From Promethearchaeati archaeon SRVP18_Atabeyarchaeia-1 (GTDB lineage: Archaea > Asgardarchaeota > Atabeyarchaeia > Atabeyarchaeales > Atabeyarchaeaceae), in contig CP147779.1 of assembly GCA_037308085.1 (NCBI GenBank), positions 777,527-797,526 of the forward strand: a stretch of DNA of 20,000 nucleotides. Direction: 5' to 3'. The first letter of the stretch is position 1, and each line of letters begins with the position of its first letter. Under the pieces are notes generated by a model that was not told where the DNA came from, did no database searches, and saw only the letters and a program-made list of their open reading frames with translations. This document shows positions 5,642 to 17,901 of the stretch, piece by piece. Position numbers and translations under genes: made by a program.

Positions 5642-6748
5642 TTAGGCTGGGCGTATGTTCGTCTGTTCTGTTCGAAGTGGGGTTGGTTGGTTCTCTTTTG
5701 GTTGTTTCTCTGTTCTGTGTTTCTCATAGTATACTCTCGTCCAGTAACCTCGCGTTGGTTTTTGAATACCGAGTCTATCACATCTTCTCGTTACCGCTCC
5801 ATCTGTAACGTTGTACCTGGTAGCAATGTGTATCAAGGGCATTTCTTGCACTAATCGTTCTGGTTCTTCCTTCGTGATTGCTCTCCATTCACTCTGTAGT
5901 TCTCTTCTTCTTTGAATCTTCTCGGGTGTGTGAGCTTCAGCGGCTCTACGTGCTTTTTCCTTTGGATCACATGGAAACCATCGTTTTCTAGGCATGCTCT
6001 GAGTGTAGTTCTTCATCATCTCATTGAACAACCTGGCACCAAGGCACATGATGCATTCAGTTCCCTTTGTCTTTCGACCAAGTATCACTTCTTCGTCTGC
6101 GCGTCTATGAATCCTGTATCCCAGATCAAACCTATCTTTGACCTGTTCCACAAATCGGATGTTGCCAGACGTGATCGCTGTCGTATGCTGTATTCCGTCG
6201 CCGTCATAGTAGCCTAGTAGAAAGGCGAGTTCCAGATCTCTGCGAGGCAACTTCGGATATTCAATTCGCTTTGATTTTCTAGGGATAAGTCCATGTGTCA
6301 GAAGATCGTTGCCCATTTTTCTGCAGGCGAAGATAATCAGAGTTGATACCTTTCCGTTCTTCTCCGTCACGTGTTTCTTTTTGTCTTTGTTAAGCCCAAG
6401 GCAGTCGCAGTACTTTTCGATCGTTTCTTCGTCTTTTTGACTAAGCTTCATTACAATTTCCATTGCTCCAGTTCTAGAGTCTCTCTTGATGCAGCCGTCG
6501 GCGAAGAGAAATCCTAGCCAATATGCTTTCTCTTTCGTGTCTATTTTGCCAAAGTAATTGAGTTTCAGGTTCGGGTGGACTGTATTCGCTTTCCACTTCT
6601 CGTACCATCGCTCCATCTGAACATTCTTCCTCCAGGTGCTCTTTGTCATATGGTTTTTCAGTCCCTTCTCTCTCTGCAACGTTCTACGAGTCACAGCGCC
6701 TGGGGAAAGGCTTCGCACAGTGAATACATCCTTTAATGTGCACATCAC
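5642..6748 (-). CDS. LAGLIDADG homing endonuclease
   Basis: Two LAGLIDADG-like motifs, KEKAYWLGFLFADGCI and LELAFLLGYYDGDGI. A C-terminal HTH-like segment reads IHIATRYNVTDGAVTRRCDRLGI. The true start may be an internal Met. Confidence 0.88.
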   Translation of the reverse strand: MMCTLKDVFTVRSLSPGAVTRRTLQREKGLKNHMTKSTWRKNVQMERWYEKWKANTVHPNLKLNYFGKIDTKEKAYWLGFLFADGCIKRDSRTGAMEIVMKLSQKDEETIEKYCDCLGLNKDKKKHVTEKNGKVSTLIIFACRKMGNDLLTHGLIPRKSKRIEYPKLPRRDLELAFLLGYYDGDGIQHTTAITSGNIRFVEQVKDRFDLGYRIHRRADEEVILGRKTKGTECIMCLGARLFNEMMKNYTQSMPRKRWFPCDPKEKARRAAEAHTPEKIQRRRELQSEWRAITKEEPERLVQEMPLIHIATRYNVTDGAVTRRCDRLGIQKPTRGYWTRVYYEKHRTEKQPKENQPTPLRTEQTNIRPA

Positions 6749-13369: not shown

Positions 13370-14512
13370 TTAGCCTACTCCAATAGTGTTCCCGATACCG
13401 GCGACGATGACCGTTGAGCCAGGCTTTGTTCTTTCTTTGATTATCTGTCTGATTCTATCTGAAACCTTGTCGGCAGCGTCGCTTATTTCCTTCTTCATTG
13501 GCGTGACTGCCTCTTCAATTGCTTCCTTAACTAGAATCGCGTCTATGGGTATCTTGTACTTCACGGCGGCTTCCTCAATCTTGTACTTCTCAGGACCAGG
13601 ATCTCCTATTGCGGCTCCGACACCCTCAACAACGTCGCCGGTCGTTTCACCCTCAAGTTTACCCGCTGCGTCGACCATGATTATCCTGGAGATCTCTCCC
13701 TTGAACTCTTCGACCATCTTGGCGATTGCTTCCCCTGGCTTACCAACGCGACTACCTGGTCCCTTCGCCCTAACGAGGATCACATTTCTGTCCTCAATCT
13801 TGATTTGTGCGACAGTAACCTCCTTCGCAACATCCTCGTTAACAATCGGTTCTAAGCCGCTCTTCTTGTACGAATCCACGATGCGGGCGGCGACGAGCGG
13901 TCCAAGTCCATCGCCGATAGGCTTGCCTACGGAGAAGGCTTTTAGCGCTTCGAAGTATGACTTGGCGATCCTCATGATTTGTGCCAGCTGCATTTGCACC
14001 TGCATCGTGATCATCATGTTCTTCTCTTTCTTGCTGAGAAGGTAGTAGTGCCTGATAACCTTGAAGATAAAGTAGACGGCGCTAGCTGCTTCAATCGACC
14101 CTTCGAGGTTCGAGGCCTCGTCCTTGCTGGCAGCAGGAGCCATCCTTGCAACAGCATCCTCGTAGCTTGATTTTCTAACGTCCAGAATGTGATCCAACCT
14201 TTGGATTACCCCGGCTGGATCGAGGCTGACAGGCTCGATTGTCACAAATTCCAGCATTCCAGCAACCGCCTTGGATGGATCCTCTGAAGGTTTGCCAACA
14301 TCCTTCACAGACTTTGTGAGGATCTCCTTAGACTCTACCGACATCCTGTCAAGCTTGAAGAGAGCCTGCTCTATCTGCTTCGTCATCCTCCACACCTGAA
14401 GAGCATTGCCATAGAAAATGATGAAGAAGAAGAAGACAAAATACAGCATGTTGATTACCAGGCCGAGCGTATTATCACTCGAACCGAACAACTGCAGTGG
14501 CACCAATCCCAT
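13370..14512 (-). CDS. Membrane-anchored conserved archaeal protein, DUF1512-like
   Basis: N-terminal TM segment (MLYFVFFFFIIFYGNALQVW) and a long cytoplasmic domain ending in GSTVIVAGIGNTIGVG. Family name recalled from memory, not searched. Confidence 0.6.
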   Translation of the reverse strand: MGLVPLQLFGSSDNTLGLVINMLYFVFFFFIIFYGNALQVWRMTKQIEQALFKLDRMSVESKEILTKSVKDVGKPSEDPSKAVAGMLEFVTIEPVSLDPAGVIQRLDHILDVRKSSYEDAVARMAPAASKDEASNLEGSIEAASAVYFIFKVIRHYYLLSKKEKNMMITMQVQMQLAQIMRIAKSYFEALKAFSVGKPIGDGLGPLVAARIVDSYKKSGLEPIVNEDVAKEVTVAQIKIEDRNVILVRAKGPGSRVGKPGEAIAKMVEEFKGEISRIIMVDAAGKLEGETTGDVVEGVGAAIGDPGPEKYKIEEAAVKYKIPIDAILVKEAIEEAVTPMKKEISDAADKVSDRIRQIIKERTKPGSTVIVAGIGNTIGVG

Positions 14513-14714
14513 ATTACTGGTCTCCTATCACAGTGTTGATCCTTCTCATTTACTCTCAAAGACTAGCATGATTTGACTCCAGCTTTTTATAAACTTGTGT
14601 GTTTAGGCAATCGAGAAGGCAAGGCATTCGGTCGATTCCCGCAACACCAGAAAGAATCCACGCGCAGCTCCCACTACCAGCAACCCACGGATGAAATGCC
14701 CCGAGAAACAAAGA

Positions 14715-14892
14715 GTGGCAACAATCCGTGGTCGGAACGGGAACGGGTGTTACCCCTCGCCTATGACCGGCGGCGCACCGCCAGCCGTCCAAGCTTCCCG
14801 AGAGATCTCTCATCTCAGTACAACTTGCACCGCGCGAGGACTTAACTCTCACGGCCGAGGTTGGCACCTGGTCGGCTCTCACGTGTTGCCAC
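14715..14892 (-). rRNA. Circularly permuted 5S rRNA gene (3' half first, then 5' half) with complementary flanking arms
   Basis: 3' half is minus 14847->14778: AGUUAAGUCCUCGCGCGGUGCAAGUUGUACUGAGAUGAGAGAUCUCUCGGGAAGCUUGGACGGCUGGCGG. Loop UGCG is 14777-14774. 5' half is minus 14773->14725: CCGCCGGUCAUAGGCGAGGGGUAACACCCGUUCCCGUUCCGACCACGGA. The reconstituted RNA is 119 nt. Helix I CUGGCGG/CCGCCGG, helix II GCGAGG/CCUCGC, helix IV GAGAU/AUCUC and helix V CAAG/CUUG all form. Flanking arms GUGGCAACA (minus 14892-14884) and UGUUGCCAC (minus 14723-14715) are perfectly complementary. Confidence 0.85.
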
Positions 14893-14922
14893 CAAAGGTA
14901 CGTGTATTATCAAAGAATAGTT

Positions 14923-14930
14923 CTTATAAA
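14923..14930 (-). promoter_or_regulatory. TATA-like box for the permuted 5S RNA
   Basis: Minus strand TTTATAAG about 25-30 nt upstream of the likely precursor start (about 14897-14900). Confidence 0.55.
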
Positions 14931-15288
14931 CTTAGCGATATCGGGTTCTGTTAACTTAGCGTGGGACGGGGAAGAGTGTTAAGCACATTGGGGTGGTACC
15001 GTCTCTATTCAGTGGATCCCCTATGGGCACGTAAGTTATAGGGAGAGTGTAGTGGGGGGCTCGAAAAGGAGAATGCACAGGACGCGATCTTCTTAACTTG
15101 CGCGCAGGGTATAGAAGGTTGATCCAGGCTAAGTCAACAGAACCTAACATCATCCAGACGTAAATCAATCTGGGAACCTCTCAATCATGGCAAGTTCACG
15201 GGGGTATAGAGAAATGCTTAACTATCAGATTAATCGCAATCTAACTAGCAGGGGCTGTAGCCTAGCCTGGGTGGGCATCGGGCTCCAG

Positions 15289-15639: not shown

Positions 15640-15923
15640 CAAAATACAGGATAATACTGCCAACTTTGGGAAACGGTATGTGAATAACACATGGAAACGT
15701 CCTTGACCCAGCACACTCTTGAGCTCTAAATAGGATCGACCATTGACGCTACTGGTGAAAGGGAAGTAAAGACTTGCCTATCAGCATGTGGGGGAACTTC
15801 CACATCTTGGGTGCGGTAACTAGCCATTGTGAAGATGCTACTAGCAGTGACGAAGGGAATGGTGGCGCTGCTTTCAGAACCATCAACTCGACCAGGATCT
15901 TTCCCAGTGGCAAGCTCCAACTG
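15640..15923 (+). ncRNA. Candidate omegaRNA (HEARO-type) upstream of iscB; 5' boundary unknown
   Basis: Structured sequence immediately upstream of the IscB start: AUGUGG(15786-15791)/CCACAU(15800-15805), and a terminal CAGGAUCUUUCCCAGUGGCAAGCUCCAACUG element with CUU/AAG, GA/UC and CAG/CUG pairs. Position relative to the ORF matches known IscB omegaRNAs. Confidence 0.55.
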
Positions 15924-17260
15924 ATGCCGAACACCTACGTTTTCGTTCTTTGCAGGTGCCGCAGACCTCTGATGCCAACAACTGCACCCAAAGCCAGGAT
16001 TCTACTGAAACAGAACAGAGCAAAGGTTTTCCGTCTATATCCCTTCACGATACAGCTTAACTATGAGACCCATCACCAGGCGCAACCTATGGAGATACGG
16101 ATCGACTATGGTGCCAAGACGCATGGCATCGCTCTAGTACAGCAGTGCAAAACACAAGAGCGAGCAGTCTTTCTCGGTGAGGCGCAGCAACGAAAAGATG
16201 TCAAGAAGAAAATGGACATAAGGAGGGAAATGCGCAGACTGAGAAGATACAGGAACACTCGTTACAGAAAACCACGGTTCAGCAACCGTAGACGACCAGA
16301 AGGCTGGGTGCCGCCAACTATAGCCCAAAGAGTCGAGTCAATCACAAGAATCGCGCGAACTCTAGAGAAGCTAACTTCAATTACCAGCGTAGTAACTGAA
16401 ATCGGCATGTTTGATGCACAGAAGATGAACGACCCAGAGATAGAGGGTATCGAATACCAGCAAGGTCCTGGTCATGGCTCGAAAACAAGAAACAAGCGAC
16501 CCTAGCGTACTTCAACTACATATGTCAATACTGTGGAGCAGAAAGGGGCATAATGACAGTAGACCATGTTATGCCGACAAGTAAGGGGGGCACAGACACC
16601 TGGAACAACCTAACATGTGCGTGCTTGGCCTGCAACAAGAAGAAGAACGACCGTACCCCAGAAGAAGCAAATATGTAATACCCCAAAACGGTAAAACCAA
16701 GAGAAGCGCATTTCCTGAAGTTTTGTGCACTAATGCAATCAGGAAAAACCAGACTTGTCAACGAACTGAAGAAACTTGCACCTACACAAACGGTATACGG
16801 CTGGCAGACAAAACGGAACCGGGAGACAGCAAATCTGCCGAAGACTCACTACTTCGATGCACTCTGCACGAGAAACATAAACCAAAAACCAATTAGATTG
16901 ACAGGCAATGTTTACTGGATCAGACTCAGGAGACGCAACATAAGGCGAACACATCTCGTGAATCCCATGAAAGGAGGGAAGAGGCAGCCTTACAACCAAA
17001 ATAAGGAACTTCAAGGATATAGGAAAGGCGACCTAGTTCGAACTCCACACGGACTAGCATACATAGTAGGAATTCTGACCTCAGGACAGCTTCAATATCA
17101 GACCATCTACGGACAAATACAGAAAAGAATCCCCAAGCAAGTCAAGCTAGTCGAGAGCACAAGAGGTGTCCGCTTCTTTCCAATGAAGAAAGAAGCCCGA
17201 GCCAAGTATCGTTTTGGAGACCAAGCGAGGCCTTCAGAAACTAGGGTCAGTGATGCTTAA
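15924..17260 (+). pseudogene. iscB: IscB-family RNA-guided nuclease (PLMP, RuvC I-III, bridge helix, HNH), split by one frameshift and one stop
   Basis: Frame 3: VFVLCRCRRPLMPTTAPKARILLKQNRAKV (PLMP), IRIDYGAKTHGIALV (RuvC-I), RREMRRLRRYRNTRYRKPRFSNRRRPEGWVPPTIAQRVESI (bridge), VVTEIGMFDAQKMNDPEIEGIEYQQG (RuvC-II). Frame 2: YICQYCGAERGIMTVDHVMPTSKGGTDTWNNLTCACLACNKKKNDRT (HNH), TAA at 16676, then LPKTHYFDALC (RuvC-III) and a C-terminal YRKGDLVRTPHGLAYIVG. Confidence 0.9.
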
Positions 17261-17804: not shown

Positions 17805-17901
17805 GGGCGGGTAGTCTAGATTGGTATGATACAGACGGTGAAGTCCGTCGTCAATGTGGCTCGGGACCACGTGGTCGTGGGTTCAAATCCCACCTCGCCC
17901 A
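17805..17901 (+). tRNA. tRNA-Pro(CGG) with a 23-nt noncanonical intron
   Basis: Exons 17805-17832 and 17856-17901 join to 74 nt. Acceptor GGGCGGG/CUCGCCC plus A. Anticodon stem CGUGG/CCACG with loop CUCGGGA. T-arm GUGGG UUCAAAU CCCAC. Confidence 0.93.
17833..17855 (+). other. tRNA-Pro intron at position 27/28, BHB
   Basis: Central helix UGAU(17827-17830)/GUCA(17850-17853). Bulges AC|A and AU|G. Inner helix GACGG/CCGUC. Confidence 0.88.

Follow-up and report, generated by a model that had tools for sequence, protein, structure and literature searches.

In Thermoproteus tenax, the SRP (7S) RNA is encoded by an archaeal non-tRNA gene whose halves are swapped (Plagens et al. 2015, PMC4731332), and the canonical gene had been called 'missing' before the permutation was recognised. 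The permuted Thermoproteus SRP RNA is cut by the splicing endonuclease and is functional as a circle (PMC4731332). Permuted tRNA genes, described in Cyanidioschyzon merolae and other algae and in Thermofilum pendens (PMC3978253, PMC3218864), are arranged in the order leader, 3′ half, short intervening sequence, 5′ half, and trailer; the leader and trailer form a bulge-helix-bulge (BHB), maturation proceeds through a circular RNA (PMC3978253), and RNase P and tRNase Z then remove the intervening sequence, which leaves the tRNA linear. Archaeal pre-16S and pre-23S rRNAs, whose genes are in normal order, carry a BHB in a long processing stem outside the rRNA, and the enzymes proposed below for the 5S act on these precursors to produce circular rRNA species (PMC12918454, PMC7758197); this pathway has been stated to apply to 16S and 23S 'but not 5S rRNAs' (PMC12918454). 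A permuted 5S rRNA is found in stramenopile/brown-algal mitochondria (Valach et al. 2014, PMC4267664), with helix I closed as a hairpin and the ends of the molecule at the junction of the alpha and gamma domains; it involves neither a BHB nor ligation, and the product stays permuted. No archaeal permuted 5S was found in the literature searched, which agrees with an earlier sequence-only reading of this DNA that was aware of no archaeal genomic case.

In the 20-kb stretch of DNA analysed here, referred to as the window, the locus described in Table 1 is a 5S rRNA gene in permuted order; this identification stands on its order, 5S identity, conservation, covariation, and BHB geometry. As the sequence-only reading had claimed, the 3′ half precedes the 5′ half on the minus strand, which is evident from direct reading and from two Rfam half-matches in swapped order, and a UGCG tetraloop (14777-14774) joins the halves. 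With its 3′ part upstream of its 5′ part and this short linker, the gene has the layout of BHB-dependent permuted RNA genes. The features of organellar mtPerm-5S (ends at the alpha/gamma junction, no BHB) are not found at the locus: helix I is likewise closed as a hairpin, but the break, with a BHB around it, lies between helix III and loop B (14725/14847; slashes mark cut or junction sites throughout), and its sealing is predicted. The locus differs from the T. tenax SRP RNA in encoding 5S and in having counterparts in many Asgard lineages instead of some Thermoproteus species only, and circularity, shown by experiment there, is what we infer for the Asgard 5S. Unlike the permuted tRNAs, it concerns a ribosomal RNA and has a 3-4-nt UNCG-type cap where these have a removable intervening sequence. 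Unlike the pre-16S/23S rRNAs, the gene is permuted and the central helix of its BHB is 5S sequence.

Table 1. Features of the permuted 5S rRNA locus, in the order of transcription
Feature	Positions	Strand	Evidence
TATA-like box TTTATAA within conserved block CGCTAAGTTTATAAGA, ~32 nt upstream of leader arm	14924-14930	minus	direct reading
Leader arm GUGGCAACA, outer helix h, 5′ strand	14884-14892	minus	perfect complement of 14723-14715; covariation; RNAalifold de novo
First CGUG copy (14883-14880) and bulge AGA (14879-14877), contiguous with arm	14877-14883	minus	direct reading
Insert hairpin of 23 nt, GCCGACCAGGUGCCAACCUCGGC (GCC..AGGU GCCA ACCU..GGC), flush against second CGUG	14854-14876	minus	direct reading
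Second CGUG copy (14853-14850) and bulge AGA (14849-14847)	14847-14853	minus	sole copy in insert-free relatives
3′ part of 5S rRNA, 70 nt: loop B 3′ side AGUUAAG, helix II 3′ strand, helices V and IV with GUACUG loop E region, helix I 3′ strand CUGGCGG	14778-14847	minus	Rfam partial match, fold, covariation
UGCG tetraloop capping helix I, linker between 3′ and 5′ parts	14774-14777	minus	direct reading
5′ part of 5S rRNA, 49 nt: helix I 5′ strand CCGCCGG, loop A CAUAG, helix II 5′ strand, helix III/loop C, ending ...CCGACCACGGA	14725-14773	minus	Rfam partial match, fold, collinear alignment after swap
CACG (14730-14727; also helix III 3′ strand) and bulge GAU (14726-14724)	14724-14730	minus	CACG in 12/12 sequences
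Trailer arm UGUUGCCAC, outer helix h, 3′ strand	14715-14723	minus	direct reading, covariation, RNAalifold
T-rich stretch TCTTTGTTTCT directly after trailer arm	14704-14714	minus	direct reading; T-rich runs after trailer in other lineages

With the Rfam 5S_rRNA model (RF00001, gathering threshold 38 bits), no 5S in native order was detected at the gathering score anywhere in the window. In E-value mode, two sub-threshold matches were obtained, one of 23.6 bits (14896-14776) that aligned well only at model positions of about 50-120 and one of 22.2 bits (14774-14672) that aligned well only at positions 1-50, and in its native order the locus stays below 38 bits as one match. Because both halves score below the threshold, a permuted gene of this kind is missed by standard annotation. 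When the halves were swapped, the resulting 119 nt folded, in the minimum free energy (MFE) structure, into the three-way 5S shape (-53.6 kcal/mol) with helix I (9 bp), helices II-III, and helices V-IV; the three-way junction, helices I-V, and the conserved 5S loops (CAUAG, ACACCCG..CCGA, AGUUAAG, and GUACUG) were all present. In pairwise alignments, the swapped sequence was collinear, junction included, with the normal 5S of a Bathyarchaeon (79/120 identical) and of a Ranarchaeon (79/122 identical), whereas the native-order sequence aligned with normal 5S at a far lower score. The swapped 119 nt thus take the canonical 5S fold, as had been proposed, and the locus departs from canonical 5S genes (RF00001) in placing the 3′ part before the 5′ part and in capping helix I. 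A covariance model built from relatives matched the locus at 145 bits (E about 5e-36) as a single match in the window, and on this ground chance is excluded as the origin of the match. Neither this model nor Rfam at the gathering score revealed a conventional 5S in the window. Three overlapping ORFs (14556-14882 on the minus strand, 14573-14845 and 14691-14954 on the plus strand) were rejected as spurious, the same DNA holding an RNA gene with covarying helices.

Compensatory covariation, which the sequence-only reading had named as a point to be checked, was found in the arms and the 5S helices of a 12-sequence set, in a Hod-type set, and by RNAalifold. Among the 12 sequences, 91.8% of the cells were paired, compared with 35-46% in slid controls, and 29 pairs were changed on both sides. 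Such changes affected 10 of the 12 arm pairs tested, 4 pairs each in helices I and II, and 5 each in helices IV and V. The CGUG/CACG central helix was invariant (12/12 sequences) and both bulges were 3 nt; among relatives, the third nucleotide of the trailer-side bulge was U, A, or G, its length being constant at 3. In the Hod-type set, 90.5% were paired (28-48% in controls), with helix covariation similar to that of the 12 sequences; the fourth central pair was mismatched in 8/9 of these genes, so that only a relaxed BHB is present there. RNAalifold predicted the arm, the central helix, and the 3-nt bulge de novo, with 27 covarying pairs, and in insert-free precursors (e.g. L126 and L145) the MFE structure is the exact h-H / bulge / H-bulge-h pattern. 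Helix I also covaries below its cap (CUGGCGG with CCGCCGG here, CUGAGCC with GGCUCGG in L041), the cap being 3-4 nt long in 25/25 relatives (UGCG, UUCG, UUU, ACAU, GUU, or AUU). For specificity, a covariance model was trained on the 12 sequences only; it scored untrained Odin, Loki, Hel, and Hod genes and the L140 gene at 65-160 bits and normal 5S loci at ≤24 bits.

The 9-nt outer arms are perfectly complementary, as claimed, and the BHB drawn around the gene in the sequence-only reading held in part. The arms, the CACG, and the GAU bulge are present, but CGUG-AGA occurs twice in the leader and the drawing had merged the two copies. The first copy shows canonical h-H-B geometry with CACG, GAU, and the trailer arm; the hBHBh′ in the window forms with this copy, which places 30 extra nt inside the cut, and the copy carrying the consensus cut is not contiguous with the arm. 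Cuts at GA/U and AG/A had been stated to yield the consensus junction, which they would at the second CGUGAGA copy, but the arm-adjacent AG/A would give a circle of 153 nt. With CGUGAGA duplicated in the leader, a simple single BHB was rejected for the window, where 30 nt separate the two cut sites; it matches exactly in insert-free relatives. In these, the strict hBHBh′ is exact (L005, L002, L041, L136, L126, L130, L133, L131, L145, L147, and L153), and a textbook BHB is formed by arm, CGUG, and 3-nt bulge on one strand and CACG, 3-nt bulge, and arm on the other. On paper only, cuts after the second bulge nucleotide join CACGGA to AGUUAAG, which is normal 5S in length and sequence. In the source organism, a cut after 14848 would make A14847 the first nucleotide of the 3′ part and the trailer-side cut would fall after A14725, giving the predicted sealed junction ...GUUCCGACCACGGA/AGUUAAGUCCUCGC. 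Three registers of the BHB were distinguished, namely Njord (GGA/AGUUAAG), Hod (GGAA/GUUAAG), and Loki (GGUAA/UUAAGC, with the predicted junction ...CACGGUAA/UUAAGC). Each restores the consensus junction length, as expected if the ends must be joined. The central helix CGUG/CACG competes with helix III, a point against the BHB scheme.

The TATA-like box is presumed to be the archaeal promoter of the 5S precursor. Its block, CGCTAAGTTTATAAGA, is conserved in three aligned Njord-like relatives, the DNA between block and arm being variable, and similar A/T boxes occur at the same distance from the arm in other lineages. The T-rich stretch after the trailer arm is the presumed archaeal terminator, and the promoter-like box and the T-run together suggest that both halves belong to a single transcription unit.

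The additional 30 nt (14877-14848) lie between two equivalent cuts, 14878/14877 next to the arm and 14848/14847 at the consensus, and consist of a bulge A, the 23-nt hairpin, and the second CGUGAG. The first CGUG-AGA copy and the hairpin are absent from L005, L002, L041, and L136. L004 has a homologous, diverged insert hairpin, and a comparable insert, likewise bringing a second strand for the central helix, occurs in L140, from an unrelated lineage. A mobile repeat was considered and rejected, the insert being single-copy in the window. With the insert in the leader, the BHB of the window can work only in two rounds, one after the other, or through a non-canonical junction. A two-round scheme would keep every step canonical, both in the window and in L004. 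The BHB of the arm and the first CGUG would give, in round one, the 153-nt circle with the junction ...CACGGA/AGCCGACC...; in round two, a second BHB within this circle (insert hairpin, GAA bulge, CACG with the second CGUG, AGA bulge, and GUU/GAC) would allow exactly 30 nt to be removed in an intron-like manner. We infer that the insert is removed in this way. The second BHB, when constrained, has an energy of -56.4 kcal/mol against an MFE of -63.6 kcal/mol for the 153-nt circle, so the energies disfavour it; as thermodynamic folding does not produce it, geometry and conservation are what carry the two-round model.

It is quite possible, if short of probable, that the insert instead arose by partial duplication, is neutral, and is at no point removed as an intron, in which case the endonuclease would act once or cut the sites in different conformers; in a single-cut version, the arm helix, the insert hairpin, and the second CGUG/CACG helix would meet in a three-way junction. 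By direct reading, the insert does look like a scrambled duplicate: the last bases of the 5′ half are echoed in its CCGACCA, and its GGUGCCAAC, together with CGUGAGA, is similar to the leader, whose arm has GGUGGCAAC. The absence of the insert from the closest relative, L005, and the fact that the second BHB is not the MFE of the 153-nt circle point the same way. Against a neutral duplication, the hairpin is kept, with changes, in the distant L004 and always adjoins the second CGUG, as the outer helix of a BHB requires, and the analogous insert of the unrelated L140 also has a second central-helix strand.

Contigs of Njord-, Odin-, Loki-, Hel-, Hod/Heimdall-, Baldr-, Frey-, and Asgardarchaeia were found to carry permuted, BHB-flanked 5S genes, which places this layout in at least seven Asgard lineages besides that of the window, so that the same order in relatives, suggested as a check, was indeed encountered, together with compensatory changes. 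In four further Njord-like contigs, the permuted 5S lies upstream of a DUF1512 gene. A pattern scan of JGI metagenomes gave 20 permuted 5S loci and 2 false matches, the Odin, Loki, and Hel contigs were found through neighbour-gene look-ups, and the closed chromosome of Ca. Odinarchaeum yellowstonii LCB_4 also carries a permuted 5S. In the closed Asgard genome CP091871.1, the gene is located near 337,673-337,834, on the complementary strand. No 5S was detected in 20 related loci at the Rfam gathering score. The pattern used for the genome collection (GTTAAG N85-115 ACCCGNTCCCNTNCCGA) was too loose; among the matches listed there was one true locus (L041), and the bacterial rRNA operons matched were rejected as a chance GTTAAG ahead of a normal 5S.

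The Bathyarchaeia outgroup has a normal-order 5S at the syntenic position. A normal-order 5S is also present in the Asgard class Ranarchaeia, and the permuted trait is therefore not universal in Asgard archaea. The Ranarchaeia 5S carries an insertion of 47-48 nt. The idea that this insertion is the ancestral BHB intron behind the permutation was set aside as unproven, since it shows one AAA bulge and no clear BHB and lies ~9 nt from the break point. For closed Heimdallarchaeum genomes, the authors reported no predictable 5S gene (PMC8813620), and 5S genes were reported as detected in Jord- and Borrarchaeum MAGs (PMC9723677); the latter could be partial matches or genuine normal genes. The permuted layout probably accounts for the 5S genes that have gone unfound in Asgard genomes.

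We consider it likely that the locus is a working permuted 5S gene whose transcript is cleaved at the BHB by the splicing endonuclease and ligated by RtcB to yield a circular 5S; the enzymes, the ligation, and the circular mature form are proposed from what is known of how these enzymes behave. Between the TATA-like box (around 14927) and the T-run (around 14710), one short transcript would be made that contains the leader, the 3′ part of the 5S, the UGCG cap closing helix I, the 5′ part, and the trailer, in this order. Leader and trailer would pair as a BHB whose outer and central helices measure 9 and 4 bp and whose strands each carry a bulge of 3 nt; in the central helix, CGUG would pair with a CACG borrowed from the 3′ strand of helix III. 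The archaeal tRNA-splicing endonuclease would cut after the second nucleotide of each bulge, and RtcB ligase would seal ...CACGGA to AGUUAAG...; with this ligation, the stretch that links helix III to loop B would regain its universal 5S sequence, and helix III could then form. The product would be a covalently closed 5S of 123 nt. The 2′,3′-cyclic phosphate and 5′-OH ends produced by the archaeal splicing endonuclease are natural RtcB substrates, and archaea circularise excised BHB-bounded RNAs. Since almost every lineage closes helix I with a tight loop of the UNCG type, the circle is probably the mature form that enters the ribosome.

Other fates of the transcript were weighed against this scheme. 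The circle might be only an intermediate whose helix I cap is later opened or trimmed, leaving a conventional linear 5S with its ends at helix I. This appears unlikely to us, and we know of no enzyme that opens such a helix I loop in 5S, which counts against re-linearisation. In permuted tRNAs, the acceptor stem is indeed where RNase P and tRNase Z open the circle again (PMC3978253), and circular pre-16S/23S rRNAs are usually described as re-linearised (PMC12918454), but the permuted SRP RNA stays circular (PMC4731332) and 23S rRNA in circular form is reported from the ribosomes of archaea (PMC12918454). Moreover, a covarying helix carries the linker in every case, and with its minimal length of 3-4 nt and its usual UUCG or UGCG sequence the loop resembles a structural cap and not a spacer bearing processing signals. 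If the bulges were cut and the ends never ligated, the mature 5S would be a linear, permuted molecule that starts and stops between helix III and loop B and that the capped helix I keeps in one piece. Such an outcome is rather improbable in view of the end chemistry left by the endonuclease, which suits RtcB, of the circularisation of BHB-bounded RNAs in archaea, and of the three registers that each restore exactly the consensus junction length, even if the three-way junction would hold an unligated RNA together and stramenopile mitochondria do have a permuted mature 5S (PMC4267664).

The view that the working 5S lies elsewhere in the genome, and that this locus is only a dead remnant or rearranged pseudogene of a 5S or was created by faulty assembly, would fit the lack of an Rfam call at threshold but is hardly credible. 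The same arrangement recurs in independent JGI, NCBI, ENA, and Logan assemblies from at least eight lineages, among which the neighbouring protein shares no more than 50-80% identity. The body of the 5S has been conserved, with compensatory changes in every helix, while the flanks diverge except for the covarying arms. A pseudogene would not retain the BHB and the promoter box, and the normal 5S of the Bathyarchaeon at the syntenic position also speaks against a relic.

Taken jointly with the working circular 5S proposed above, the data can be read to mean that most Asgard archaea (Loki, Hel, Odin, Njord, Hod/Heimdall, Baldr, Frey, and Asgardarchaeia) would lack a conventional 5S gene and that the 5S in their ribosomes would be a covalent circle, which the tRNA-splicing machinery would produce from the transcript of a permuted gene. 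The permutation would have a single early-Asgard origin at a locus that is still normal in Bathyarchaeia; the BHB would since have slid by single nucleotides, and some lineages, including the source organism, would have gained a nested intron-like insert. For this reading as a whole, we regard the case as evenly balanced.

The 5S is a universal ribosome component whose gene is assumed to be easy to find, and here it was hidden by the swapping of its halves. As permuted genes fall below the Rfam threshold, MAG quality standards that rely on 5S detection likely under-score such lineages. Permuted versus normal order, together with the BHB register, offers a simple clade marker that could bear on Asgard relationships under dispute, for instance the placement of Njordarchaeales and Ranarchaeia. 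If the proposed maturation is true, moonlighting of the splicing endonuclease and RtcB would extend from tRNA, SRP RNA, and 16S/23S rRNA to the third rRNA, which is excluded by the current literature. The scheme predicts that, in the closest archaeal relatives of eukaryotes, the large subunit contains a circular RNA. If the reading for most Asgard archaea is true, the 5S would be the first known case of a universally essential RNA whose circular form is obligatory throughout a major clade, the one closest to eukaryotes.

The sequence-only reading had claimed a circularly permuted 5S rRNA gene with bulge-helix-bulge (BHB)-like termini on the minus strand, and direct reading of that strand showed its coordinates for both halves, the loop and the arms to be exact (see table). 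The CGUGAGA taken there as single proved to be present twice, the copy adjoining the arm not being the one adjoining AGUUAAG, with 30 nt separating the equivalent cut sites of the two copies. Corrected for this insert, the permuted 5S is real. Archaeal genes for NurA, HerA and PheRS alpha and beta surround it. The window has a match in a 29-kb contig built from run SRR28200043.

Coordinates of the permuted 5S locus, of other features in the window and of loci in relatives
Feature	Position	Strand	Basis
TATA-like box TTTATAA	14930-14924	minus	direct reading
Leader arm GUGGCAACA	14892-14884	minus	direct reading
First CGUG; first AGA	14883-14880; 14879-14877	minus	direct reading
23-nt hairpin GCCGACCAGGUGCCAACCUCGGC	14876-14854	minus	direct reading
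Second CGUG; second AGA	14853-14850; 14849-14847	minus	direct reading
5S rRNA 3' part	A14847 to G14778	minus	direct reading
UGCG loop	14777-14774	minus	direct reading
5S 5' part, end ...CCGACCACGGA	C14773 to A14725	minus	direct reading
U, then trailer arm UGUUGCCAC, then T-rich run	14724; arm 14723-14715	minus	direct reading
Permuted 5S together with the DUF1512 gene directly downstream, window (Njordarchaeota)	13370-14892
RRXRR (HNH-like) protein gene, window	15774-16505	plus
LAGLIDADG-domain ORF, window	5642-6748	minus
tRNA gene, window	17805-17901	plus	Rfam, 39.8 bits
Permuted 5S, L140, contig Ga0326728_10000123 (312 kb)	1458-1618	minus
Permuted 5S, L145 (Baldrarchaeia)	1736-1904	minus
Permuted 5S, Ca. 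Odinarchaeum yellowstonii LCB_4, closed chromosome CP091871.1	near 337,673-337,834	complement
Normal 5S, L152 (Bathyarchaeia)	2784-2903	plus
5S with loop C insertion, L151 (Ca. Ranarchaeia MAG JBQSJU010000167.1)	2560-2728	plus

Using Rfam at the curated threshold, no 5S was called in the 20-kb window and a tRNA was the sole match. Permissive thresholds gave two 5S_rRNA matches, both below the 38-bit cut-off: 23.6 bits at 14896-14776, with good alignment at model positions of about 50-120, and 22.2 bits at 14774-14672, with good alignment at positions 1-50. The order of these half-matches places the 3' half of the 5S upstream. When 14773-14725 was joined to 14847-14778, the minimum-energy fold of the resulting 119 nt (-53.6 kcal/mol) was the classic three-way junction, in which helix I has 9 bp and helices II-III and V-IV are formed. 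The swapped RNA aligned end to end with normal 5S from a Bathyarchaeon (79/120 identical) and a Ranarchaeon (79/122), both alignments running unbroken through ...CGGAAGUUAAG...; in the native order, alignment was poor. Half-matches, fold and collinear alignment all support the permutation.

The DUF1512 protein adjoining the 5S gene showed 74-83% identity to about 20 proteins, one labelled Candidatus Njordarchaeota, and its next-best matches were from other Asgard archaea (58% identity or less). The search of relatives for the same order, as the sequence-only reading had proposed, found permuted 5S genes in Njord contigs and many Asgard lineages. Within Njordarchaeota, the contigs retrieved with DUF1512 homologues all had the permuted gene directly upstream. 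The closest relative (L005, 5S body about 98% identical to that of the window) and contig L002 were without the insert and read GUGGCAACA-CGUG-AGA-GUUAAG... / ...CACG-GAN-UGUUGCCAC, a strict BHB with an outer helix, a 4-bp central helix and a 3-nt bulge per strand. L004, the most distant of these contigs, had a homologous, diverged insert with CGUGAAA as the first copy. L041, a GTDB MAG ('Promethearchaeati archaeon LC30'), was also insert-free; its helix I, CUGAGCC/GGCUCGG versus CUGGCGG/CCGCCGG, showed four compensatory pairs, with the UGCG cap kept.

Scanning JGI metagenomes with a pattern requiring the 3'-half motifs upstream of the 5'-half motif gave 22 loci, 20 of which were permuted 5S genes of at least six divergent groups; Rfam at the gathering score called 5S in none of the 20. 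Named from protein clusters, the groups included Hodarchaeales/Heimdallarchaeota, Freyarchaeota, Baldrarchaeia (again directly upstream of DUF1512), Asgardarchaeia (adjoining the 23S gene) and the L140 lineage. Look-up around DUF1512 homologues found permuted genes in an Odinarchaeia contig (L147), a Lokiarchaeota MAG (L148) and two Hel-type MAGs (L149 and L150); Ca. Odinarchaeum yellowstonii LCB_4 also has one. Two controls had normal-order 5S: a Bathyarchaeon (75 bits, at the syntenic position) and L151 of the Asgard class Ranarchaeia (Rfam, 77.1 bits), whose loop C carries a 47-48-nt insertion. By sequence comparison, the permuted 5S extends well past one contig and characterises a large part of the Asgard clade. 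L149 and L150, submitted as Helarchaeota and Hodarchaeota, carry nearly identical Loki/Hel-type genes unlike the Hodarchaeales-type genes of loci L125-L146; one label is probably wrong.

Covariation was counted in 12 sequences of the Njord-type register, with the insert taken out of two, over the arms, central helix, inner helix and 5S helices I, II, IV and V. Pairing was 91.8%, versus 35-46% with partners slid by 1-3 columns; both-sided changes occurred in 29 of 51 pairs, and 10 of the 12 arm pairs tested covaried. None of 500 shuffles reached the observed values on four of five measures. The central CGUG/CACG helix was invariant and the bulges were always 3 nt. A Hod-type set (eight Hod sequences plus L140) was 90.5% paired, versus 28-48% in slid controls. 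RNAalifold, with no structure supplied, predicted an arm that runs unbroken into the central helix, a 3-nt bulge and the four helices I, II, IV and V, and minimum-energy folds of single insert-free precursors (e.g. L126 and L145) gave an exact BHB. A covariance model trained on only the 12 sequences scored 160 bits for the untrained Odin contig L147, 151 for LCB_4, 145 for the window (one match), 101 for Loki, 76-93 for Hod, 74-76 for Hel and 65 for L140; loci with normal bacterial or archaeal 5S scored 24 bits or less.

The tRNA-splicing endonuclease cuts after the second nucleotide of each bulge. Such cuts in the 5S precursor would leave ...CACGGA and AGUUAAG..., whose ligation would create the universal CGG-AA-GUUAAG junction of helix III/loop B. 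Judged by predicted pairing, insert-free precursors have the geometry of the hBHBh' motif, the substrate of the archaeal enzyme (PMC3978253). The BHBs of Hod (CCGA/CCGG, giving GGAA|GUUAAG) and of Loki and Hel (GCCG/CGGU, giving GGUAA|UUAAGC) are shifted one or two nt along, and the joined product is still of consensus length, as expected if the ends must be sealed; cutting without ligation, leaving a permuted 5S molecule, is thus improbable. The central helix borrows CACG, part of the helix III 3' strand, so that helix III would form only after leader removal. RtcB would ligate the cut ends into a circle, going by the established behaviour of archaeal BHB-bounded RNAs. Among these, the permuted SRP RNA of Thermoproteus functions as a circle (PMC4731332), a precedent for the 5S circle that we infer here. 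Re-opening of the circle at helix I is a somewhat less remote alternative, though still unlikely: the helix I cap is 3-4 nt in 25/25 genes, UUCG or UGCG in most of them, and the stem beneath it covaries, which suggests a permanent structural cap and argues that the mature 5S would be a closed circle of about 120-129 nt. The original interpretation is supported by all comparative evidence gathered, its RNA-level steps being predicted.

In the window, the first CGUG paired with CACG forms the canonical motif beside the arm, and a cut at 14878|14877 would retain 30 extra nt in the circle, reading CACG-GA·A-[GCC...GGC hairpin]-CGUG-AG|A-GUU. A second BHB could form there (hairpin as outer helix, 3-nt bulge, 4-bp helix, 3-nt bulge, inner helix GUU/GAC), and a second round would remove exactly 30 nt to restore the consensus junction. 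We consider this about as probable as a tolerated insert processed through alternative conformers. Tolerance is favoured by folding energies, which disfavour the second BHB, and by resemblance of the insert to a partial, scrambled duplication of the leader and the end of the 5' half. However, although the hairpins of the window and L004 differ by about eight substitutions, each directly adjoins the second CGUG, and the unrelated L140 has its own leader insert of roughly 30 nt (GGAAAA-CCGC-AGA-hairpin-CUGA-AA-GUUAAG), in which its central-helix strand occurs a second time, by sequence an independent parallel.

The 5S gene is directly upstream of DUF1512 in Bathyarchaeia (normal) and in Baldrarchaeia and Njordarchaeota (permuted), and within a few kb of it in Loki, Hel and Odin. 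Since normal and permuted genes share this order, the synteny predates the permutation, and the latter seems to have occurred in place. The L151 insertion lies about 9 nt from the break point of the other Asgard genes. Its fold is a long, extended hairpin with a single AAA bulge, and no clear BHB is seen in it; the insertion could be either an expansion segment or an intron of an unusual kind, and is possibly related to the origin of the permutation. In Asgardarchaeia, 0.6-0.7 kb separate the permuted 5S from the 23S rRNA gene; the two are divergent in L126, L128 and L134, and the 5S is upstream on the same strand in L133. Intron-containing tRNA genes lie close by. An SRP RNA gene lies about 1 kb from the 5S in L145. 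Upstream of the window 5S is the RRXRR gene, where L002 and L004 have genes for an HTH protein, HMG-CoA synthase and thiolase; the LAGLIDADG ORF is further away. Proteins of both types typically belong to selfish or mobile elements, and the DNA beside the 5S may be a recent insertion.

The window tRNA gene received no ARAGORN assignment. Its acceptor and T arms are good, its anticodon arm is UGUGG-CUCGGGA-CCACG (Pro, CGG), and the D and anticodon arms are separated by about 24 additional nt that contain a GACGG-UGAAGU-CCGUC hairpin. A non-canonically placed intron is the probable explanation; if true, this organism's splicing endonuclease would be shown to act on unusual sites.

A search for permuted or circular 5S in archaea or Asgard, in mostly non-subscription full text, gave nothing beyond the organellar case (PMC4267664) and papers on plant rDNA, in agreement with the earlier statement that no archaeal case was known. 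A 2023 survey of natural RNA permutations has organellar 5S entries only (PMC10085705), and a 2026 paper applies circularisation to archaeal 16S and 23S 'but not 5S rRNAs' (PMC12918454). A permuted 5S would explain the reported lack of predictable 5S in closed Heimdallarchaeum genomes (PMC8813620).
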